From Candidatus Saccharimonadota bacterium (GTDB lineage Bacteria > Patescibacteriota > Gracilibacteria > Absconditabacterales > Absconditicoccaceae), in NCBI GenBank assembly GCA_000503875.1, contig CP006913.1, forward strand, positions 300,001-332,000: a DNA stretch of 32,000 nucleotides, given 5' to 3'. The first letter of the stretch is position 1. Every line of letters begins with the position of its first letter. Below, one piece after another: positions 1 through 32,000 of this stretch. Position numbers and translations under genes: made by a program. The notes below the pieces were generated by a model, which was not told the DNA's origin, did no database searches, and saw only the letters and a list, made by a program, of their open reading frames with translations.

Positions 1-1621
1 GTTTATTCTTTGTAAGATTAACACTCATATCACCAGGTTTTGCACTTTCACCAACAACCATTCCTTCATACATTTCTGAAGCTGGTTGGATAAAAATTAC
101 CCCTCTTTCTTGAAGCTTCCAAATACTATATTTCATACATTTACCCGTTTCTTGACTAATCATTGATCCTGTTGTTCTTCTAGGAATATCTCCTTTATGA
201 GCAGTATAATGAGAGAAAGAACTATACATAATTCATTCTCCTTTGGTAAGAAGTACAAACTTAGATCTAAATCCAAGTAATCATCTTGTTGGTACATCAA
301 ATTGAAGCGTAGTTAGTCCATGATGAGTCATCATATCGGTCATTTGTCCTTTTCTTTTGGCAAGAAGATCGATAATAGTTCAAGACATTGCTTCATTAAC
401 ACTGATAACTACGTGTTCAATTGGTTCCATTTTTTGTCCGTCTTCCATCTTGAATATTACTTGAGGAGCAGAAACTTGAAGTTCAAATCCTTCTCTTCTC
501 ATAGTTTCAATCAAAACAGACAGATGAAGTTCTCATCTTCCTGCAACAGTAAATCTATTTCCTCATTTATCAAAATCGATTTCTAGTCCTACATTTGTTT
601 GAAGTTCTTTTTGAAGTCTTTCCATAATATTTCTAGAAGTTACCATTTTCCCTTCACGTCATGCAAAAGGTGAATCATTAACTAGAAAATCCATTTTTAA
701 TGTTGGTGCATCTACTTTGATATGAGGAAATGGTTCGCATCATTCGACACCAATTGTTTCTCCTACATAGATATTAGCCAATCATGCAATAGTTGCAATA
801 TCTCAACATTGAGCAGTTTGTGTTTCTACTCTTGAAAGTCCAAGGGTAGTATAAAGTTTTGAAATTCTTCCTTTTCTTTTGTTACCTGCATTATCAAATA
901 CGACAACATCTTGTCCTGTACGAACAGTTCATTCATAAATTCTTCAAATACCAAGTCTACCTACAAAATCATCATAACCTAAATTAGCAACTTGCATACG
1001 AAATGGTTTGTCAGAATAATCTGGTGCTTCAGGAACAACTTTTTCTATAAGTTCGAACAAAGGAAAAATATTTCACGTTTTTCTAGCTTCTTCAAGATCT
1101 TTGAGTTCGTTGAATGCATATCCACCTTTTGCACTACAGTAAATAACAGGAAAATCCATTTGTTCATCAGTAGCTCATAGGGTGAAAAACAATTCAAAAA
1201 GCTGATCTACTACCCAATTAGGTCTAGCAGTATCTTTATCAATTTTATTGATAACAACGATTGGATTAATACCAAGTTCCAATGACTTTTTGAGTACAAA
1301 TTTAGTTTGTGGCATAGGTCATTCATAGGCATCAACGATCAAAAGTACGCTATCAACCATTTTGAGAGCTCTTTCTACTTCACTTCCAAAATCTGCATGT
1401 CCTGGAGTATCTATAATATTAATAGTATTTCCATTGTAATGCACAGACGTATTTTTGGAATAAATAGTAATACCTCTTTCTTTTTCTTGGTCATTACTAT
1501 CCATAATTAAAGTCTGATCTTCCATTTGTTTCATGGTTCCTGACTGAGTAAGGAATGCATCAACCAAGGTTGTTTTACCATGATCTACATGGGCAATAAT
1601 TGCTATATTTCTAATAGCCAT
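1..1621 (-). CDS. typA: Translational GTPase TypA/BipA, partial (C-terminal end lies beyond the left edge)
   Basis: The N-terminus [21 protein letters not shown] carries the P-loop, followed by DTPGHADF and NKID GTPase motifs. The minus-strand frame stays open down to position 1 once TGA is read as Gly. Those TGAs sit on conserved Gly residues (SPFA-G-REGK, GR-G-ELHLS, PTR-G-LLGF). The last readable residues, [21 protein letters not shown], match the TypA C-terminal region. Confidence 0.95.
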
Positions 1622-1640
1622 AATAATAGTCTATTGAATA

Positions 1641-1661
1641 AAAAAAACCGCACAAATGCGG
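1641..1661 (-). terminator. Weak terminator-like hairpin just upstream of the typA start (possible leader or attenuator element)
   Basis: The minus strand reads CCGCA-TTTG-TGCGG followed by a T-run (A-run 1641-1647 on plus). The stem is only 5 bp. The element lies 20 nt before the typA ATG. Confidence 0.25.
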
Positions 1662-1854
1662 ATCTATATAAATAATCTGCGTTTTTTTGATAATATACTT
1701 AGTGCGAGTATAAGGAATTGTAGAACAAAAGCAATAGTGATTCAAAAGCAATAGTATTTCATAAATATTACCAAAAATCTTTGGATATTACCTTGATTAA
1801 AAATCAGAATTATATACAACAATTACCGAAAGTTTTATTTTTTATAGATACGAA

Positions 1855-3648
1855 ATGTATCGTACGCATACGTGTTGACAACTTACTTGAAAAAATGCAT
1901 GAGAGGCTATTGTCCTTTCAGGATGGGTAAATAAAGTAAGAAATTTAGGAGGAATGACCTTTATCGATCTTCGTGATAGATATGGGATAACTCAAGTAAC
2001 CTATGATCCAAGCAGACATACGTTTCCTTTGCCAGATCTCAAATCTGAATATGTTGTAAAAATTTCAGGAACCGTGGTTGCTAGACCAGATTCTATGATA
2101 AACAAAGATATGCCCACTGGCGAAATTGAAATTTCGCCAACAGCTATAGAAGTTTTATCTGACTGTAAAGAACTTCCTTTTCCTGTTGATCACGAAGCTC
2201 CTGTAGGTGAAGATATTAGATTGGAATATCGTTATCTCGATCTCAGAAGACAAACGATGAAAGAAAATATTATAGCAAGACACAAAATATTTACCGAAAC
2301 TATTAAATTTTTTGACGAAGAAAATTTTCTTCATATAGAGACGCCAGCATTTGTCAAAAACACACCAGAATGATCGAGAGAATTCGTGGTTCCTGCAAGA
2401 TTTGAACCAGGAAAATTTTTCGTACTTCCTCAATCTCCTCAACAACAAAAGCAAATGCTTATGGTTGCAGGGATGGATAAGTATGTACAAATAGCAAGAT
2501 GTTTTCGTGATGAAGATCCTAGAGGAGACCGTCAACCAGAATTTACGCAAGTAGATTTTGAAATGTCATTTGTAGAGCAACAAGATGTTTTGGATATCAC
2601 CGAAAAATATTTCCTTGCAGTTTCAAAAAATATTTTTCCTCACAAAACTATTGTTCAAGAAAAATTTCCTATTTATACATGGGAACAGATGATGAATGAC
2701 TATGGATCAGATAAACCAGAATTGAGAACTAAGGAATTTACCTTCAAAGATCTGACTGACCGAGCAAAAAAAACAGATTTTAGTTTGTTTCAACAGGCTG
2801 CTGTAGTCAAAGCAATAGCCTTACCAAAAGCATTAAGTAGATCAGAAGCAGATAAATATGAAACATTTGTCAAACAATATGGCTCAAAAGGACTTGCTTG
2901 GCTTTCTATGACAAGTGAAGGTCTCAAAGGGACCGTGGCGAAATTTATCACTCCAGAAGTACTTGCTGAATTGCCAGGTAAATGAGAAGGAGAATGGACA
3001 TTGTTATTCCAGATAGGAGAACGAGAAGATGTAGTAAAATATCTTGGTATGCTTAGGACAAAACTTCTCCAAGATTTCAATGTGCTCAAAGGGAAAGAGA
3101 ACGAAGTAAGTTTTGCTTTTGTAGTAGATTTTCCATTGTTTGAACTAGGAAATGACGGTTCTTTGGGAGCTGTACATCACCCATTTACGAAGCCAAAAGA
3201 CGAAGATATTCCTTTTGTAAAAGCATTAGGAAAAAAACTCCGCGAATGAGGAAATATGACTGACGAAGAAAAGACAAAACTTTTGGCAATCAAAGCTGAC
3301 TGTTATGATCTGATTTTCAATGGAAACGAAGCAGGTGGAGGAAGTATTAGAATCTATGACAAAGAACTTCAACACGCAATTTTTTCACTTTTGGGACTGA
3401 GTGATAAACAAATTCAAGAAAGATTCTGACATTTACTTAAATGTTTTGAATACGGAGTACCGCCTCATTGAGGATGTGCATTCGGTTTGGATAGAATGGT
3501 TATGTTATACCAAAATATGGAAAATATTCGTGAAGTAATTGCCTTTCCAAAGAATCAAAAATATCGTGATCTTATGATCGACGCTCCTGGTCAAATCGAT
3601 GAAAATTTATTGAAGGAACTAGGATTAGCAGTGATTAAAAAAGAATAA
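1855..3648 (+). CDS. aspS: Aspartyl-tRNA synthetase (597 aa when TGA = Gly)
   Basis: The ATG at 1855 gives [44 protein letters not shown], the AspRS N-terminal OB-fold signature. Track ORFs 1954-2373, 2386-2985 and 3001-3249 are one frame joined by TGA. Class II motifs are present: TPE-G-SREFVVPAR, FRDEDPRGDRQPEFTQVD, GGGSIRIY and PPH-G-GCAFGLDRM. The stop is TAA at 3646. Confidence 0.97.
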
Positions 3649-7247: not shown

Positions 7248-7583
7248 TTAGAATATTTCATCAGGATCTATTCCTGTGACATATTTTACAAATCCCCAAA
7301 GACCGCCAATGCAGATCCAATAAATAAGAACAAATTCATCTTCTTTATCAAGCAACGTAGCAAATTTTGGTGTAGTTGCAATTACGAAAATACACGCAGC
7401 AACAATGCCAATCATAAAGAGCATAAACAAATTAAGTCCAATAATGTTAAGTTTTGCATCTTTTTTATTCCTTTTTTTCCCGTTCACAAGGAAAAGAATA
7501 ATGAAAAACAGGAATAATGATAAGCAAGTAAATCCAATTGTCCAAGGGTTTAGTCTTGCAAAATTAATGGTGTTTTCGATCAT
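7248..7583 (-). CDS. Hypothetical small membrane protein (about 3 TM segments), 111 aa
   Basis: The ORF is uninterrupted and has three hydrophobic stretches separated by a KKRNKKD loop. It is flanked by a terminator. No homology was recognised. Confidence 0.65.
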   Translation of the reverse strand: MIENTINFARLNPWTIGFTCLSLFLFFIILFLVNGKKRNKKDAKLNIIGLNLFMLFMIGIVAACIFVIATTPKFATLLDKEDEFVLIYWICIGGLWGFVKYVTGIDPDEIF

Positions 7584-7713: not shown

Positions 7714-10221
7714 ATGACAGATAAACGCCAATCTATAAATGAATTACTTAATCATCAGTTTCAAGAATTAGGGGCTAATTTATCTGATTGAGAAAAACGG
7801 ACTTTAAATAGTATCTATCAGCAAATCTCTGGTAATTTATTTGTTTCTCTAGAAGGGAGAAAAGGAGTGAAAAAAGATAAAGTCACAGAGATTCTTTCTA
7901 CTGCACTTTGTGATGCTTTGAAAGAGAGGAGTGAGGTAGGTTTAGTGAAGAAAATACAAAACGTTAAGGAAAAAACAAAAAAAGTACTAATGCATGAAAT
8001 ACTTTCGAATGGAAAAGTAAATAGAAGCTGGATGAAAACAGCCACTTTTGATCAAGTAAAACAATATATCAAAGATCAGGGATGGTATGGTAAAGGTACA
8101 TGATGGATGTCAAAAACAGAAGAGGGACTTCAATCTTGAGCTGGAGCTTTTTATCGATCAATTACTAAGGTTGACCGATATAAGAAATTGAAAAAAAAAA
8201 GGAAAGTAGATCTTTTCTGATTTAATGATGGTAAAAACAATGATCGAGGTTGGATGAAAACAGCCACTTTTGATAAAGTAAAGCAATATATTATAGATCA
8301 GGAATGGTATGGTAAAGGTACGGGATGGATAGTAAAACAAAAAAAAGGGAATACTTTTTATAGAATGCTATCTGTAATTTCTCGATATAAAGATCTAACA
8401 AAAGAACAAAAAATAAATTTATTTTGATTTGATGATGGTAAAAACAATGATCGGGGTTGGATGAAAACAGCCACTTTTGATCAAGCAAAACAATATATCA
8501 AAGATCAGGGATGGTATGGTAAAGGTGTGGGATGAATAAAAGAGTATTCATTAGGGAATACTTTTTATAGAATGCTATCTGTAATTTCTCGATATAAAGA
8601 TCTAACAAAAGAACAAAAAATAGATCTTTTTTGATTTGATAATTGAGATGAGAATCGGGGTTGGATGAAAACAGCCACTTTTGATCAAGTAAAACAATAT
8701 ATCAAAGATCAGGGATGGTACGGTAAAGGGGTTTTATGGATAAGTGTTTATTGAAGTGGTTTTTATAATAAACTTAAGAATTTTAATCGGTATGAATTAT
8801 TAACAAAGGAACAAAAGATAGATTTATTCTGATTTAATGCCTGATATGAAGATCGAAACTGGATGAAAACCGCGACTTTTGATCAAGTAAAACAATATAT
8901 AAAGAATCAGTGATGGTCAGGAAAGTGACCTGGTCGGATGCAAACAGAAGAAGGTGAAAAATTATGAGCAAATAAATTTTATAGTAAATTAGTAACATTT
9001 AATCGATATAGCAAATTAAATAAAGAACAAAAAATAGATCTTTTTTGATTTGATAATTGATATGAGGATCGAAGTTGGATGAAAACCGCAACATTTAAAG
9101 AAATCAAACAATATATAAAGAAACAATGATGGTATGAAAAAGGAGCTTGATGGATAGGCGCACAAGAATTAGGAAATTCATTTTGTGGAAGGCTATTTAT
9201 TCTTCCACGATATATAATATTAACAAAAGAACAAAAAATAGATTTATTTTGATTTGATGATGGTAAAAATCATGATTGGGGTTGGATGAAAACCGCGACT
9301 TTTGATCAAGTAAAGCAGTATATTGTAGATCAATGATGGTATGGTAAAGGTACGGGATGAATAATAGAGTATTCATTAGGGAATACATTTTATGGAAAAT
9401 TATCTATTCTTCCACGATATAACAAATTAACAAAAGAACAAAAAATAGATCTTTTTTGATTTGATAGTTGATATGAGAATTGGAATCGAATGAATACAGC
9501 AACCTTTAATGAGGTAAAACAATATATAAAAGATCAATGATGGTATGGTAAAGGTTTTAACTGGATAGCAGAAAAACGATGATGATTTAATCAAAAACTT
9601 ATTAGACTCAAACGATATAAAAAATTAACAAAAGAACAAAAGATAGATCTTTTCTGAAAAACAAAGATATCATACATGATAAAATGAGAAATATGTTATT
9701 TCGATTCTTATCCCGAAAGAAAAATAGCAGTAATTTTCAATAAATTATGAATTGTACCTCAATGGAAAGAATGAGAAAATCTCCATGTATATACTAATGG
9801 ACAAAGGAAACATAGTATAGATTTTAAGATTGGAAATCTTTTTTTTGAATATCATCCAGTACATCGAAGTAAAGAAAAAAAATGATGAAGTTTCGAAAAT
9901 GACGCTAAAGGCAAAAACGACAATATAACTAATCCTTTATATAGGCATATAGATTTACATGTATTTGATTTGCGTGGATCAAAGTTTAATGAAAAAAAAT
10001 GAACATTTATTGAATATAAAAATTGATTCCTGTTAGAATTATATCATCTTATAAAAAACATACCGCAATTAATACAAAGGATTCCTCTAGATAAAAGATA
10101 TATTATGCTTAGTGAAGATAATTTTAAGGTGTTCTATAATCAAGTTGTGAATGAATTGGTAAATTATGATACCAAATCAAAGAATGATAAAGAATTACCA
10201 GATTATCAAAAGGCAGCATAA
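7714..10221 (+). CDS. Orphan 835-aa protein: about 105-aa N-terminal region, eight ~68-aa tandem repeats, and a C-terminal ~185-aa restriction-endonuclease-like (Vsr/DUF559-like) candidate domain
   Basis: A single frame stays open from ATG 7714 to TAA 10219 once roughly 45 TGA codons are read as Gly; it contains no TAA or TAG. The repeat consensus is WMKTATFDQVKQYIKDQGWYGKG...FYxKLxxxxRYxxLTKEQKIDLFGFDxG. The C-terminal segment reads ICYFDSYPERKIAVIFNKLGI...KHSIDFKIGNLFFEYHPVH. Minus-strand track ORFs 8158-8340, 8291-8488 and 9197-9388 are shadows of the repeat. Confidence 0.85.
8029..9656 (+). repeat. Eight in-frame tandem repeats, unit lengths 198-222 nt
   Basis: Unit starts (the TGG of the WMKTATF motif) lie at 8029, 8251, 8458, 8662, 8860, 9076 and 9283, with a degenerate unit at 9487. 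All unit lengths are multiples of 3. Long stretches are identical between units at the DNA level. Confidence 0.95.
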
Positions 10222-10243: not shown

Positions 10244-10696
10244 TTATAATTTCTTAATCATAGTTAGTATCGTTACATCTTCTTCTCTATAGGAGTCTTT
10301 TATCTCGAATCCATGTTTCTTGTAAAAATTTCTTGTGAAAAGATATCCAGGATAATCTGGATGTTCATCTAGCGTGAGTAGTTCGATTTTTTTGATTCAT
10401 TGTTCGCTCAATAACGCTTCTGTTTGCTTCATTAACACGCTTCCTATTCATTGATGACGATAAGAGGGAAGAACACCCATCCAATATATTTTTGCTTTAG
10501 ATTTACTTATGTTTTCAAACGTTATAAATCAGACTATTATATCTTTATCTTTGGCTACAAATCACGTTAGGGTTAGTATTTTCTCTTCCGCAAACTCAAT
10601 AGTTTCAGGAGAAAAATAATCAGAAAGAATCTGCATTATATCAATAATGATTGTTTTATCCTTAGATTGCATAGGTAATACTTGTATATTTTCCAT
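10244..10696 (-). CDS. GNAT-family N-acetyltransferase, 150 aa
   Basis: The reverse-strand frame gives MENIQVLPMQSKDK...IYWMGVLPSYRHQ-G-IGSVLMKQTEALL...FYKKHGFEI. The acetyl-CoA motif A (R-x-x-G-x-G) has its first Gly encoded by TGA. There are 4 in-frame TGA codons and the stop is TAA. Confidence 0.85.
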
Positions 10697-10790: not shown

Positions 10791-10820
10791 ATTATCTCAG
10801 AAATTTTTATGTCCATCATT

Positions 10821-11187
10821 TGGAGATGACGGGATTCGAACCCGTGTCTAAAAGGCATAACTAATAATTTCTACCACTATATGTTATCTATAGGCCTATA
10901 ATTTTTCGAGTTATGAGTACAGGCGAGTTTTAGCCGATAGACAGGCGAACATTTCGTCCTCACAACATAATGGTTTCCTTCTTGGTCGACCTGGTACATA
11001 GAAGGAGTCTGTATCCAGGATGGTACATTCAAGAAACGCGCTTACGCAGCGTATGCAGGAACGAGAGCGAAAGCTCTAGCAAGTGTTTTGTTTGCACTTT
11101 TTTTCGATCCGTAATTTACCTCTAGAATCATCGAGGAGTGGCTATCATTAATTATGAAGTCCCTTTATCAAATCCAGAGACATCCCC
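10821..11187 (-). ncRNA. ssrA: tmRNA (SsrA), about 367 nt; the CCA tail is not encoded
   Basis: The 5' end is GGGGATGTCTCTGGATTTGA. The 3' end is ACGGGTTCGAATCCCGTCATCTCCA, comprising a T-arm, an acceptor stem with a G3-U70 pair, and discriminator A. The internal tag ORF GCA AAC AAA ACA CTT GCT AGA GCT TTC GCT CTC GTT CCT GCA TAC GCT GCG TAA (11095 down to 11042) encodes ANKTLARAFALVPAYAA. Confidence 0.93.
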
Positions 11188-25913: not shown

Positions 25914-28232
25914 TTAGTGTAAAAAGACTTCAGAGAAATCTATAAGTATCTTAATATCTGCCAAAAGTTCTTCTTTATAAATATTTAATTTTTTAAGTGT
26001 TTTTTCATTTATTTTTTCTATTTTTATAATCATGGATTTGAGTATAGTAAGTTGCTCTGGTTGTGTATATTTTTTGATATTATCAGCAAGTAATTTTATA
26101 AGAATAGCATTATTGCTTTTCATTCTTAAAGAATTGCTATAATCAAGTTGATATCAATATACTATTAAAGCAGCCATTTCCTCCCTTGTAAGATATGTAT
26201 TTGCATCCTGAAAAGTATCAGTAATGATTTCTATATTCTTTGGGTCTTTATTAACTAGTTTTAAACTATGAATCAAAAGTCTAATAGCATCCAATTTTGT
26301 AATAGGTTTCTCTGGATTAATATATATTTTATTGTTATCAAATTTTTCTATAGGAATCAATAAATCGTGTACATATGCCTTAATTATATATGGAGCATAC
26401 CAAGCATTTTTGGAAACATCTGAATATATATTTTGAATATTAAATGTATTATTATGAAGATCTACACTACTTCCCAAAAAATGACTTTTAACAAGTACTT
26501 TTATAAATTCAGAATAACTTGTTGTCTCTTTATTTCCAAAAAATCTTTTTTTTCATAGTTGTTTTCATTGAATAATACAATAATTAAGCAATGTTTCTAC
26601 TTGTTGTTTATAAGTACTATTATTATCATCAAAAGAGATATTGCGATAATCTGTATCCATATACTGACACTGTTCTATCTGTTGTTTTTGGTTTTGATTA
26701 ATAGTAGATAATATAAAGTCTGACGTTGTTTCTATCTCTTTTAAATCAATAAGAGCAGCGGGCATACCAAATGTTTTTTCCAATGCTTTTTGTTGAAGTA
26801 ATAATTTTGGACTTAAAATCAAAGAAGCTGATTCTATTTGACAGGTAATTGCACATCCATCACCATCGTTTTTATTACTATCATCACATTCTTCCATATA
26901 TTCTAATTTTCAATTTCAACAAATACCAGGTTGTTCTGCTTGACAGGTAGCTGTACATCCATCTCAATTTCGTTTATTACCATCATCACATTGTTCTCCC
27001 TGTTCGGTAATTTTGTTTCCACAAATAGGTATAGAAGAAGCGCCTCATCAACCTCATCATCAACTAGGAGATAAAACGATAATCTCTCCAATTTTCTTGC
27101 TAGCAGAAAAAGAAAGAGAACTATTTTCCAATTGGGTTCCTGCGGTATTTCGTTGTACTGGTTGTATTTGATTTGGTAAATTTGATCACCAGCTACTACT
27201 AGAAGCGACAAAATTATCTCAGAAAGGTTTTACTCATCTTCGTGTTCCTGTGGCTGTAGAAGTATCTATAAGATAATTTGTTCAATCATGAGGATTGAAA
27301 ATTTCATTCTCCGTAGTAATCAATCAGGTTGTCATATTTCAATTCTGCCATCAAATAGTTCAGAGTAGGGGATCAGTAGAAAGTCAGAGTTTTAATCATA
27401 CTGGTAATGATATATCAAATTGAATTAGTCCATATCAGGTACTACTTGCAACGATGGTATTTCATATATTATTAAATAGTTTAATACTGTTAAAATAGCT
27501 TCCTAAAACAGTTCTAATACCATTTAAATTATTATTATATGCTGTAGAATTATTAAATACATTTTGTATTCCTGCTTGAACTAAAAATCCATATGATGTA
27601 TTGTTAAAAGAAATGCTATTATTTATTATATTTCTATATCACCCATTAATAAAAATTCAATTCTGACTATTATTAAACGTGATAATATTATTTAGTACGT
27701 TATTATTGGAATTGGTGAGTAATGAAATTCACATACTATTTCAAAATATTTTAGTATCTTTTATAATGGTATTGATTGTAGTTGTAAGCAAAATTCATCT
27801 ATTACTTCAGTATATAGTGGTATTTGATATTGTATTACTATTAGTATTAGAAAAAGAAAGTGCATCAGCCGCATTTCCGTTAATAATCAGATTTTTGATG
27901 ATATTGTAGTTACTTGAAATAGTTATTACTGTAGTTCAATTTCCATTTATAACAGTTCAATCAGTTCCTACCAACGCAGTACAGGGTTGAGTTAGAGAAA
28001 TTCCGGCAAGGTTATAGGTACCTGCTTCAAAATCATATGTAGTATTTCCCGTCCAGAAAGTAGGAATAGTAGAGGGGGTTACTACTATATGATTGCTTTC
28101 TGCAACATTACAAGTATCGCTATATCATAACCATATTGAAGTATTTTCTGTAGAAAAATTCTGGGCAAATGTAATAGAAAAGCTCCCCAAAAAGAACAAT
28201 ATTCCCAAAATAATTTTCTGTTTTTGTTTCAT
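25914..28232 (-). CDS. Large secreted surface protein: signal peptide, parallel beta-helix (PbH1-like) region, poly-Gly linker, two Myxococcus-type Cys-rich repeats, and an SLH-like C-terminal region; 772 aa
   Basis: The ATG at 28232 is in frame (2319 nt) with track ORFs 26565-26897, 26154-26477 and 25914-26123, and the frame holds only TGA, about 32 by my count, with no TAA or TAG. The signal peptide is MKQKQKIILGILFFLGSFSITFAQ. Asn-rich repeats include NIIKNLIINGN and NNSISFNNTSYGF. The Cys-rich repeats are CGNKITEQGEQCDDGNKRN-G-DGCTATCQAE and C-G-N-G-KLEYMEECDDSNKNDGDGCAITCQIE. An SLH-like segment reads DVSKNAWYAPYIIKAYVHDLL...LTREEMAALIV. Track ORF 26903-27211 is in a different frame. Confidence 0.85.
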
Positions 28233-28299
28233 AGAAATCCATCTAATGGATAAAGTATTATATGTATATATGAGAAAGCTTAAACTTTTCAACTAAAAA

Positions 28300-28929: not shown

Positions 28930-29070
28930 TTTTTTGTTTTAGTTTTTATTATTATGAAACATTATAAGAATTAGTCAAGTATTTTCAATTGAAAATTTTC
29001 ATAAAAATTGACGCAAGAAAAAAACTGAATACACTTAGACAAAGGCACATTTTATTTATTATCTCAAAAA

Positions 29071-32000
29071 ATGAAACAGCATTTTCAAAACATTCATTAT
29101 CATGTCAAAAAGGCACATGAACATATTAAAAAACATACAAAGAAAGCACATGAACATCTCAAAAGACATGGGAAATGGTATATATATGGTCATATTTTGG
29201 CTGCTTCTGCTATTTTAAGTATTTTTTTGAATAGCAATAGTAAGTCTGATGCATCTTTTGATAACACTTTGTGTACACAAGATTTTTCTTCAATGAATAT
29301 GACTTTGGAATATGATTATACTGAAGCCAAAAAAAACGTTATGCTTAAAGGAATAAGTTTTGATAAAATTATTTTTCCTGAACTTATTTTGGTAAACAAA
29401 GTAAAACAAATTAAACCAGTACCAAATAAAAATGAACTTAGTACAGATCGTGGTGATTTAGCATCATATATTAATCCAAACAAAGAAGATCCCACAGAAG
29501 AAGAAATAGCAGATTATTTGAGTAATAATAATCTAAATAATTTAATTGATGGAGAAGGTCGAGGAGAAGTTATTTTGGATGTAGAACTTGAAAAAATTGT
29601 TTATGATAACACCAAAAAAGGAGATGTAATAGGTGAATTATTGATTTTTGAAAGAGGAATGAATGCAGATATGTATATTCAATCAGTTGATTCTCTTTGA
29701 TGAAAAGAACTTTGAAAAAAAATATTTCTCAATAGAAAAGATTTGATTTATGCTGGATTTGATGTTGATACGGTAGAAATTGGTACTCCTCAAAAAATGG
29801 GATATTGGAAAGTTGATCTAGAAAAATTAGGTGTTTGAGCTATTAAATTTTTGAGAATATCATCAGAACCAAAAAATAGTGGTCCAGATTTTAAGATCAT
29901 TTGATTAAATACTAAAAAATGTAAACAAAAACAATTAGAACCATTGGAAGTAACTGCTCTTTGTTCTGTTTCGCCAGAAAATACAAGATTTTGGAAAATA
30001 ACTAATCCAAACGATGAAAAAGTAGAATTTACACGGGATATCTATAGATCAACGCAAGGATGAATAAATTCTATGGAAGCAAAAACTGATATTATGATTC
30101 AAGCTTCTCCAACAGAAATTTCAACAGTATTGAGAGTATATTTAAATGGAATTCTTCAAGACATTATTCCAAGTAGTGAAGAAAAATGTCCAATAATTCA
30201 ACCAGAAATACCATTGGAATTAGAACCAATCTGTTCTTCAGATCCAGAAAGTCATAGAGTATGGAAAGTAAAGAACAATAACGCACAACAAGTAGAATTT
30301 AAATGGAATATACCACAGACTACATCATGTAAAGGAAATAAAATTCTTTTATGTCATGTGCCTCCCGGAAATCCAACAAATGAACATGAAATATGTATTG
30401 CTAAACCAGCGGTTGCTGCGCATTTGGCAAAGGGATCGTATGAAGGATTATGTCAAAATTCTATAAATCAATCAAATATTATTGTATGATGAGAAACATC
30501 AGTTGTATTTACAACACCAGTTATTGATAATCCAGAAATGTTAAGCATTTCTATTGATAATATTGAACAGGATGCTTCACTTAGTACAACAGATCTTTGT
30601 CCAAAACAACCAGTTAATGATTATACTATTTCAGTTACAACAGACAAACAAGAAATTTTTCCATGAGAAGAATTAGTTTATACTATTCAATACGATAACA
30701 TTGGACCAGAGCTTATGCAATCATGAACAATAGAACTCGGTTTTGATGAGAATTTTGAATATATGCCAAATGAAAATTCTGAAATAATTATTTCAAATAA
30801 CAAAATTATTTTACCAACAATGTTAGGAAATAGTTCAAACAAAATAGAAATTAAATGAAAAATGAAAGTAAATATTAATACTGATTCAGAATCTTTATTT
30901 AAAGCAATTATTTCGGCGGATCGTGACATAAACAAAGATAATAATATAGTAACGACCACAACAAAAATAAAAAATTTAGAACCACTCGAGTTAAGTTCTT
31001 TGTGTTCAGATAATCCATCTGCAGTGAGAGCTTGGAGAATTCAAAATCCGAATCCAATAGATGTTCCAGTTGATATTTATGTGCAAGATGAATTCTCTGC
31101 ATCAGTAATTGCAAAAGCAAACGAGCACACCTATGTAAAAACAAATACTTTTAGTACTGTAGATTGAATAAATATTGTATCATTACGATATAATGGACAA
31201 AAACAAATAGAAAATTCTAGTGAAAATGTTTCTTGTCCAAAACCTATTTCTGATTTAGCCGTAGAAAATGTAAATGTAGAAATGGTTTCAGAAGATATGT
31301 TTGTAGCACAAATTACTTTTGCAAATCTAGGTCCAAATTTATCTAGTGATATTTTAATTGATGTTGCTGTATCTGATGCTATGTTTGTTGTAGAAAATTC
31401 AATTCAACCAGAACTACAGGAAACATTGAACGTAATGGAAATAGATGAAACCTATATATTGTCTATTACGTGAGCATTGATCTCATGAGAAGCACAAATC
31501 GCAGTTACAATAAACGGTCAAACAATTGATCCAAATGTATATAACAATAATTCACAATCAACTATTTCTAGTAGTAATTATGTAGTGCCAGAAGAACCTA
31601 TCAATGAAGAAGAAAATCAAGAACATGACGCTCCTACTGAAGAACCAGAAAATATTCAATGATATGAACTCGGTGAACAAGTAGATCTTGATCAACAAAT
31701 TAAAGAGGATGAATATACAGAAGATATGATTGGTTTAGGCTGTCATTATACAGACGAAGAATATGAAAAAATAAAATTCCAAGATGTTATAAATCATCGA
31801 TCAAAACCATATGTAGAGCTTTTACGTATTAATTGTATTGTGAAAGGAAGAGAAGTAAATACTTTTGTTACTGATGACTATATAAAAAGAGGAGAAGCAA
31901 TTAAAGTAGCTATTAAATTATGGTGAATAGATAACGATTGGAAAGTTAAATCTGATAAATATATATACCTTGGAGATACTCCTATGGCTGATGTAAATAA
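29071..32000 (+). CDS. Very large surface protein, N-terminal part only (continues past the right edge): His-rich cytoplasmic tail, TM anchor, three Cys-bounded modules, DUF11/CARDB-like repeats, and an SLH-like segment
   Basis: Track ORFs 29071-29700, 30073-30489, 30862-31167, 31282-31473 and 31726-31926 are all in one frame (position mod 3 = 1) and are joined only by TGA codons. The frame is still open at 32000. The TM segment is WYIYGHILAASAILSIFL. DUF11-like segments include DYTISVTTDKQEIFP-G-EELVYTIQYDNIGPE and DLAVENVNVEMVSEDMFVAQITFANLGPN. Confidence 0.88.

Follow-up and report, generated by a model that had tools for sequence, protein, structure and literature searches.

A tandem-repeat protein from the Absconditabacteria carrying a predicted Vsr-like nuclease domain: a candidate modular, homing-endonuclease-like DNase

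The homing endonuclease I-Bth0305I is the prototype of the enzymes with the Vsr-like "EDxHD" pattern, the residues being E25, D51, H64/H69 and D97 in Vsr and E170, D196, N208, H213 and D222 in I-Bth0305I; it is reported to read a long target (PMC3239194). The general design, recognition modules joined to a Vsr-like cutter, is already known from these EDxHD homing endonucleases. Here, we describe a gene at positions 7714–10221 (plus strand) of a 32,000-nucleotide (nt) stretch of contig CP006913.1 (assembly GCA_000503875.1, positions 300,001–332,000; hereafter the window, whose numbering is used throughout), from a member of the Absconditicoccaceae. Its 835-amino-acid (aa) product consists of a 105-aa N-terminal region, eight tandem helical repeats and a 187-aa C-terminal domain, in line with the ~105 aa, eight units and ~185 aa of the initial annotation, which had been made from the sequence alone. 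The C-terminal domain defines a family of about 50 distant relatives, is predicted to adopt a PD-(D/E)xK nuclease core and stands in these relatives behind unrelated kinds of tandem array.

The gene is a complete open reading frame (ORF) of 835 sense codons followed by a TAA stop, and contains 34 TGA codons and neither TAA nor TAG within the frame. Long ORFs across the whole window require TGA as a sense codon. When the TypA/BipA gene (window 2–1630, minus strand) was aligned with E. coli BipA (PDB 5a9v), the reference for the assignment, 10 of its 13 alignable TGA codons fell on glycine and none on tryptophan. Furthermore, TGA interchanges with GGN codons in five alignment columns of the repeats of the 835-aa protein. 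Because of these two observations, the genetic code is table 25 with TGA read as Gly, and the single continuous frame initially proposed on that reading is borne out. The only full-length public record of the gene, P0001 (ENA contig k127_980329), is the identical sequence translated with TGA as Trp, and therefore carries 34 wrong residues. Another record, P0002 (78 aa), results from a table 11 call of this gene and ends at the first TGA. All that is on record of the gene comes from one 91-kb contig of a single sediment metagenome (SRR944699, PRJNA167727), and the repeat copy number is accordingly without a cross-check.

The N-terminal region (aa 1–105; 7714–8028, plus strand, as are all features of the gene given below) is hydrophilic and matches no family. 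By reading, it contains no signal-peptide-like hydrophobic stretch. A Pfam scan gave only a sub-threshold DUF5513 match, and phmmer against 1.84 billion representatives returned no relatives of this region besides P0002, itself the same gene. By eye, a short motif, K..TE.I..L, recurs in two relatives, P0011 and P0039.

The C-terminal domain (aa 649–835; 9658–10218) is common to the whole family. The initial annotation had called the protein an orphan; an exhaustive HMMER (phmmer) search of 1.84 billion cluster representatives overturned this, with 54 matches at E ≤ 1e-3, 25 of them at E ≤ 1e-10, amounting to about 50 distant relatives. Nearly all of the matches cover aa 650–755, the start of the domain, which lies C-terminally in proteins of 150–1065 aa. 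Word-indexed protein searches, by which the full protein retrieved itself only and the C-terminal domain and family profile retrieved nothing, are blind to this family, and the exhaustive search was required to find it. Scans of genome, viral and metagenome contigs with the protein and the repeat found no relatives; a tighter alignment of the C-terminal domain detected seven short metagenome loci and, with the patterns used, zero relatives among IMG/VR viral contigs. The named sources of the relatives are metagenome-assembled genomes (MAGs) of Woesearchaeota and Nanoarchaeota, and one relative's metagenome contig bears archaeal ribosomal and prefoldin genes. Wherever named, the relatives are annotated as hypothetical, one stray label excepted. 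The family is rare and patchy, occurring in Woesearchaeota, Nanoarchaeota, Absconditabacteria and other lineages, which is consistent with, and no proof of, horizontal spread.

In an alignment of 47 sequences (A2), whose members are 25–45% identical overall, S665, E668, H691, F704, E712 and H714 are invariant, and F663, D664, R669, E686, N689, D703, P715, F804 and D819 are conserved in at least 90%. These residues give the family signature FDSxPER...EGxNLHV.TNG...SIDF....IEYHP. The C-terminal string quoted in the initial annotation is exact, and the S-x-x-E, D-F and E-x-H pattern that it had picked out from one protein is thus invariant or nearly so in 47 relatives. In no member does the domain have a consistent match to a model of Pfam (target at E ≤ 1, 47 members at E ≤ 10), PHROGs or PADLOC, and a scan of the target alone against NCBIfam gave nothing. 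The PADLOC defence models yielded scattered matches to the target and family only, all at E ≥ 0.0019. The Pfam models Vsr, DUF559, RAP and FAST have no match in the target or the 47 members at the same respective thresholds (we take the accessions of the first three to be PF03852, PF04480 and PF08373). A match of the C-terminal domain alone to ROBO1 immunoglobulin domains among PDB sequences (E 5e-4) was dismissed as a chance match because it is absent from the family-profile search.

The protein ends in two Ala codons (...QKAA; 10213–10218), a C-terminus that recurs across the family. Ala-Ala ends 15 of the 47 distinct members, as compared to ~0.13 expected from the 5.2% Ala content, and 22 of the 47 end in Ala. 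The Ala-Ala ending is present in bacterial and archaeal members alike; it may serve as a degron of the ssrA type or as a tail that binds a partner. Archaea are not known to have tmRNA, which leaves the archaeal endings unaccounted for by the former. Separately, the partial relatives P0007 and P0026 end in LSLIHI, the translation of CTGTCTCTTATACACATC, which we take to be a Nextera adapter; these ends therefore reflect adapter read-through in public protein sets.

The structure of the domain was predicted with AlphaFold2 (AF2) from an alignment of 54 rows, in which R7, R8 and the C-terminal domain of the target were combined with relatives (model residue n is protein residue 523 + n). The model has a mean predicted local distance difference test (pLDDT) score of 81, and most of the C-terminal domain scores above 90; a single-sequence prediction of the domain (pLDDT 34) was discarded. 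The predicted elements are, in order, a β-hairpin, α1, β1–β3, α2 and β4, followed by a helical subdomain (aa 765–824; 10006–10185; model helices 242–301) with a conserved F and a Y-D motif. In model numbering, the helices span residues 143–154 and 204–213, and the strands residues 167–170, 178–183, 186–189 and 224–227. This α-β-β-β-α-β arrangement, in a model and not a solved structure, is that of the PD-(D/E)xK nuclease core, which we place at aa 652–750 (9667–9963) on the basis of AF2, hhalign over α1–β3 and Foldseek against BFVD. The conserved residues occupy the canonical catalytic sites of this core. E668 lies on α1, at the start of which stands the S-x-x-E motif (S665-Y-P-E668; 9706–9717), and D703, the presumed metal ligand, lies on β2 within S-I-D-F (9820–9822). 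E712-Y-H714 (9847–9855) ends β3 at the (D/E)-x-K position, and the invariant H691 belongs to N-L-H on β1 (9784–9786). The motif is therefore a variant, in which the Asp on the second strand is kept and His replaces the Lys of (D/E)-x-K. The initial annotation had allowed that the region might model as a non-nuclease fold or lack conserved catalytic residues; the model is a confident PD-(D/E)xK type, and the residues are conserved.

Comparison with known structures and sequences pointed to phage enzymes. The top Foldseek match in BFVD is the phage homing endonuclease W5RV99 (E 0.027, prob 0.95), the product of gene SEP9_070 of Staphylococcus phage SEP9. Further BFVD matches include endonuclease I, a Holliday-junction resolvase, a "restriction enzyme", a "VSR homing endonuclease" and giant-virus treble-clef proteins, and the weak matches in the PDB include viral cap-snatching endonucleases and PvuRTs1I. 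SEP9_070 was aligned with ten diverse phage relatives gathered by tblastn. After a treble-clef Cys motif, these 11 sequences carry S-x-G-E, F-D-F, I-E-Y-D-G-x-Q-H and D-x-x-K, and so fit the EDxHD pattern (PMC3239194). In hhalign, alignment A2 scored 28% (E 6e-4) against SEP9_070 alone and 61.6% (E 7.8e-5) against the 11 phage sequences, over 55 columns with S..E, DF and IEY in register. When the family hidden Markov model (HMM) was run against all six-frame ORFs of phage SEP9, SEP9_070 ranked first, with 5.8 bits only. E668 would then be the counterpart of E25 of Vsr and E170 of I-Bth0305I (PMC3239194).

We regard it as probable that the C-terminal domain is a divergent Vsr-like branch of the PD-(D/E)xK fold, nearest to the phage homing-endonuclease type and with an active-site variant of its own, E-x-H-P. 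The initial assignment to PD-(D/E)xK folds of the Vsr/DUF559 kind stands as regards the predicted core and the phage motifs in register; similarity to the Pfam Vsr and DUF559 families themselves is undetectable. The invariance of the acidic and His residues suggests that the domain is catalytically active.

The array of eight tandem helical repeats occupies aa 106–648 (8029–9657). Its units are R1 (aa 106–179; 8029–8250), R2 (aa 180–248; 8251–8457), R3 (aa 249–316; 8458–8661), R4 (aa 317–382; 8662–8859), R5 (aa 383–454; 8860–9075), R6 (aa 455–523; 9076–9282), R7 (aa 524–591; 9283–9486) and R8 (aa 592–648; 9487–9657), each of 66–74 aa except R8, which has no linker. Tandem Repeats Finder (TRF) detected periods of 207 nt (score 814) and 414 nt (score 1229). 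The consensus, WMKTATFDQVKQYIKDQGWYGKG..GWI.....GN.FY.KL....RYKKLTKEQKIDLFGFD.G, agrees with that of the initial annotation. Between units, the conserved blocks differ at 0.53 of synonymous sites (pS) and 0.10 of non-synonymous sites (pN; pN/pS ~0.19), as compared to pS 0.49 and pN 0.44 in the variable blocks (pN/pS ~0.9), and nucleotide divergence between units reaches 8–26% even within the conserved blocks. This pattern indicates that the units are old and diverged, with the conserved blocks under purifying selection.

The variable blocks that had been noticed after GKG and after FGF are real, the latter forming the linker, and a third was found in the helix after FY (alignment columns 43–49). 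As far as the substitution pattern tells, all three appear free to vary or driven to vary. They are common to certain pairs of units (2 and 3, 3 and 7, 6 and 7) in a mosaic fashion, which suggests exchange between units. As initially supposed from their sequence, the repeats are small helical modules: AF2 renders R7 and R8 all-helical, with ~five helices per unit (pLDDT ~60–88). Conservation is found in the first helix (TFDQVKQYIK), the last helix (TKEQKIDLF) and the aromatics W1, F7, Y13, W19, F36, Y46 and F58, and variation sits in the short second helix, the third helix and the linker.

The repeat had been described as belonging to no named family, and our searches agree: there was no match above threshold in Pfam, NCBIfam, PHROGs or PADLOC, and searches of PDB sequences with the repeat profile gave nothing beyond a weak match to F-93 of SSV1. 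Its summed score on the F-93 model (Pfam PF22194) is 22.7 bits, against a cut-off of 28, and profile positions 2–52 pair with the part of F-93 that runs from the recognition helix through the wing to the C-terminal helix (PDB 1tbx; E 0.0075). A winged-helix reading was rejected, as the score falls short of the cut-off and AF2 predicts short helices there, with no strands or wing.

Across the family, the C-terminal domain is preceded by at least five unrelated kinds of tandem array. The closest relative, P0003 (38% identity), has the identical repeat-plus-domain layout. Many others bear ~68-aa repeats of the pattern DWS.F.TIDDW..EY..HPEW.GKS......G..FY.AF..W......L...IFP, in arrays of 1 to about 8 units, and these are homologous to the target units (hhalign 81%, E 1.3e-5, in register). 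In the woesearchaeal protein P0034, on the other hand, seven canonical and unmistakably DNA-binding helix-turn-helix (HTH) units precede the domain (MerR_1, 54.7 bits; HTH_23, 48.4 bits; HTH_17, HTH_28 and Sigma70_r4_2 also above cut-off), and P0017 has three HTH units (MerR_1, 30.3 bits). P0054 (1065 aa; locus L006, 10001–13198, in a bacterial-looking context) carries ten ~73-aa repeats before its nuclease-like domain, which match the eukaryotic chromatin motif WHIM1 with 98.9 bits summed, four stretches passing alone. As the HTH units show no detectable relationship to the target-type units, the arrays appear to have been exchanged as cassettes. This exchange is our strongest argument that the arrays are interchangeable modules for nucleic-acid recognition, with DNA as the substrate, and the modular nucleic-acid-binding nuclease logic suggested in the initial annotation is strengthened by the HTH arrays that precede the same domain in relatives.

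Taken together, we lean, somewhat more than evenly, towards a free-standing, homing-endonuclease-like, site-specific DNase composed of a recognition array and one catalytic domain. DNA is taken as the putative substrate because the same domain sits behind canonical HTH arrays in relatives. In such a scheme, the protein would be cytoplasmic, and its array would dock along DNA and pick a long site. The conserved aromatic core, together with the conserved, Lys/Gln-rich helices at either end of the unit, would form an unchanging framework that contacts the DNA backbone. The local preference of each module would stem from its diversified second and third helices and its linker, and eight modules would specify a long target. 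Such a long target could make a nuclease tolerable without a partner methylase. By analogy with the fold, D703 and E712 would hold Mg2+ with the assistance of E668, and activation or positioning of the water would fall to H714, at the Lys position, or to H691. One active site would produce a nick; a double-strand break might follow if the protein dimerised, as I-Bth0305I does, through the C-terminal helical subdomain (aa 765–824). The gene would then most likely be a selfish homing-type nuclease gene or a defence nuclease gene, moving horizontally. A farther-reaching proposal, that the units and the relatives' arrays are unrecognised modular, recombinable DNA-reading blocks, each unit reading a short DNA stretch of fixed length through its variable helices, and that their shuffling rewires the target, seems doubtful to us at present; if true, it would mean that bacteria of the candidate phyla radiation (CPR) and DPANN archaea, with their small genomes, have evolved a new programmable protein scaffold that comes joined to a nuclease.

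Several results weigh against a homing-endonuclease-like DNase. None of the comparisons links the repeats of the target itself to a DNA-binding fold, and homology between them and the HTH units of relatives was rejected (hhalign below 1%). The domain matches no curated family. Foldseek returned nothing at E ≤ 1e-3 from either the PDB (best E 0.6) or BFVD, where the best E of 0.027 is marginal, and the Foldseek query was a multi-domain model built on the Trp-for-Gly mistranslation. The hhalign score to the phage enzymes is no higher than 62%, and that of A2 to E. coli Vsr is 0.3%. With respect to the EDxHD composite motif, E668 and D703 are present and the phage Q-H is without a counterpart; the invariant H714 sits 11 residues past the Asp, not 17–18 as does the His of Vsr and I-Bth0305I, and the conserved final Asp was not identified in A2. 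Vsr-like domains can also be catalytically dead RNA binders, as reported for FASTKD4 (PMC11879112). As for mobility, Rfam found only the tmRNA and two tRNAs in the window, with no group I or II intron, and the family has no link to an intron, intein, transposase, integrase or viral contig. Synteny with the nearest genome, MAG STD2_163, ends after the aspartyl-tRNA synthetase (AspRS) gene, so that this comparison speaks neither for nor against an insertion polymorphism.

These points leave room for other readings. FASTK-family proteins have exactly this layout, a helical array with a Vsr-like domain at its C-terminal end, and their RAP/FAST region resembles Vsr and I-Bth0305I (PMC11879112). The protein could thus be a prokaryotic, RNA-targeting analogue of the organellar FASTK/RAP, OPR-RAP and HPR-RAP proteins, with an array that binds one specific RNA and a Vsr-like domain that cleaves or clamps it during RNA processing or stabilisation; its repeats are all-helical and lack a DNA-binding signature, and its neighbours are housekeeping genes, including those for tmRNA, AspRS and TypA. 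However, the Pfam RAP and FAST models give no match, relatives place canonical double-stranded-DNA-binding HTH arrays before the same domain, and the nearest profile and structure matches are DNA homing endonucleases. Moreover, the acidic and His residues are invariant here, whereas FASTKD4 appears catalytically inert (PMC11879112), and we consider an RNA target unlikely. FASTKD4 is also a reported case of the inactive PD-(D/E)xK and Vsr-like domains that are known (PMC11879112), and as the Lys of the (D/E)xK motif has given way to His and no methylase or immunity gene is nearby, the protein might instead bind DNA without cutting it, the nuclease fold serving for binding or oligomerisation and the array acting as an architectural element of the chromosome or as a repressor. 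Such a regulatory role is rather unlikely in our view, given that the near-invariance or invariance of E668, D703, E712, H714, H691 and S665 is typical of an active site rather than of a binding surface, and that a core regulator would not be expected to be so rare and patchy.

The swapping of unrelated repeat types before one effector domain is also reminiscent of many defence and toxin systems, in which case the repeats would be sensors of proteins or of the envelope, and ligand binding would unleash a non-specific nuclease; the C-terminal -AA could then act as a degron and so hold a dangerous protein at a low level. The relative P0009 reaches a summed 28.2 bits on the pseudomurein-binding repeat (PMBR) model (cut-off 24.9), although no single stretch of it passes. 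A PMBR reading was rejected, since this one relative has a summed match only and the target has none at E ≤ 1. Nor does the target match any other library family, so that the cell-wall or protein-interaction repeat entertained in the initial annotation was not found. The N-terminus is also devoid of a signal-peptide-like stretch by reading, no PADLOC model matches, no partner genes are conserved, and the HTH arrays of relatives are DNA readers; we judge a toxin-like or defence effector of this sensor type improbable. Finally, a single contig from one sample, 34 TGA codons and repeats that are hard to assemble might raise the suspicion of a chimeric or mis-collapsed repeat or a spurious frame. 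Against this, TGA is validly read as Gly throughout the window, the units differ at 8–26% of nucleotides in conserved blocks with a signature of purifying selection, about 50 independent relatives of the C-terminal domain exist, and P0003 has a like layout. The gene is real, not the collapsed-repeat artefact against which the initial annotation had cautioned, and an assembly or gene-calling error of this sort is very improbable; an error in copy number alone would leave the conclusions unchanged.

The gene is free-standing. Upstream lies an ORF for a small membrane protein (7248–7583, minus strand), and downstream, in convergent orientation, a GNAT acetyltransferase gene (10244–10696, minus strand). 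The tmRNA gene follows two genes downstream (10820–11187, minus strand; Rfam, 85.5 bits). ARAGORN gives its tag peptide as ARAFALVPAYAA, which ends in -AA too. A genomic island at the tmRNA gene was rejected, as there is neither a direct repeat of the tmRNA 3' end nor an integrase. The neighbours in four relatives are different each time and mainly housekeeping genes, with no conserved partner, and no DNA methyltransferase gene adjoins the gene in the window or on the four relatives' contigs. TypA and AspRS are 95% and 84% identical at the protein level to those of the Ca. Absconditabacteria MAG STD2_163, and the divergent TypA–AspRS pair is syntenic (window 1–3648; L020, 7971–11794). Beyond the pair the two regions have nothing in common, and gene order in this lineage therefore changes quickly. 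A search of the window for tandem DNA arrays as a candidate binding site gave none, a promoter scan near the gene did no better than on shuffled sequence, and terminator-like matches inside the repeats proved to be the repeat sequence itself.

Other loci that came to light deserve mention in their own right. On the woesearchaeal contig JAHWHH010000094.1 (L002, 259–9939), seventeen consecutive same-strand ORFs stand directly upstream of the gene for P0034. They have almost no Pfam matches, the main exception being a 322-aa protein with many faint HTH matches, and the run may be an integrated element. On a Tara marine archaeal contig (L003, 6695–11827), a 43-aa ribbon-helix-helix (RHH) protein, a 722-aa protein of no assigned family, P0004 and a 428-aa protein, likewise unassigned, are encoded on the same strand; this block is flanked by housekeeping genes, is conserved on the three contigs shown and may be an operon or a small island. 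Within the window, a 792-aa ORF with 32 TGA codons (25914–28292, minus strand) encodes Asn-rich, β-helix-like repeats, which give way to Cys-rich "C..G..EQCDDGN...DGC" repeats and finally to a C-terminal region, and is probably a surface protein. A large surface or adhesin-like protein is probably encoded at 29005–32000 (plus strand) by an ORF that exceeds 998 aa, is open at the window edge and contains repeated "LEPLE..LCS..PE..R.W.I.NPN...V.F" modules.

If our reading is right, a family of nuclease domains is missing from Pfam, NCBIfam, PHROGs and PADLOC, and its members could be annotated because the signature FDSxPER, NLH, SIDF and EYHP is clear. A homing-endonuclease-type architecture would then extend beyond phages and introns to Absconditabacteria and DPANN archaea, for which mobile elements and defence are little known. 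By combining one catalytic domain with at least five unrelated arrays, canonical HTH arrays among them, nature would have run its own experiment in modular target recognition, which might also yield new nickases or nucleases with long targets. The gene is also a concrete case in which reading TGA as a stop or as Trp hides or corrupts a gene.

Among known systems, Type II restriction-modification differs in that here no methyltransferase adjoins the gene, in the window or on the four relatives' contigs. F-93 of SSV1 offers the sole sequence-level resemblance to the repeat, and the first two helices of its winged helix are missing here. Vsr is a single-domain mismatch nickase with no array. The E. 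coli enzyme and the Pfam Vsr and DUF559 families share the predicted core topology and the order of the acids, with Glu on the first helix and Asp on a strand; the present domain differs in its lack of a Pfam match, in the hhalign score to E. coli Vsr given above and in having no zinc site. Repeats of the FASTK, OPR and HPR type are ~37–38 aa long. The FASTK/RAP, OPR-RAP and HPR-RAP proteins follow the same design, a long helical array with a C-terminal Vsr-like domain (PMC11879112), but are eukaryotic, organellar and RNA-binding. Transcription activator-like (TAL) effectors (TALEs), BurrH/Bat, MOrTL and TAL effector nucleases (TALENs) likewise use tandem, near-identical helical modules with variation at defined positions, and fusion of such an array to a nuclease makes a modular, site-specific cutter. 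TALE units are 33–35 aa long, with two helices and two variable residues, each unit reading one base, and natural TALEs are not known to carry a nuclease. In comparison, the units described here have 66–74 aa, ~five helices and three variable blocks, and show no Pfam match or similarity to them.

The closest parallel is provided by the EDxHD homing endonucleases (I-Bth0305I, SEP9 gp070 and Twort IepB), in which N-terminal recognition modules precede a C-terminal Vsr-type nuclease, and many of whose genes are free-standing, as here. As compared to these phage enzymes, the present protein has E-x-H-P where they have E-Y-D-G-x-Q-H, and contains no treble-clef zinc finger and no NUMOD motifs, recognition falling instead to eight ~68-aa helical repeats of an undescribed type. 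Its hosts are Absconditabacteria and DPANN archaea, and its gene is associated with no intron or intein and lies among cellular genes. The novelty therefore lies in the nuclease subfamily with its variant motif, in repeats of a ~68-aa type, in arrays exchanged like cassettes and in the hosts concerned.

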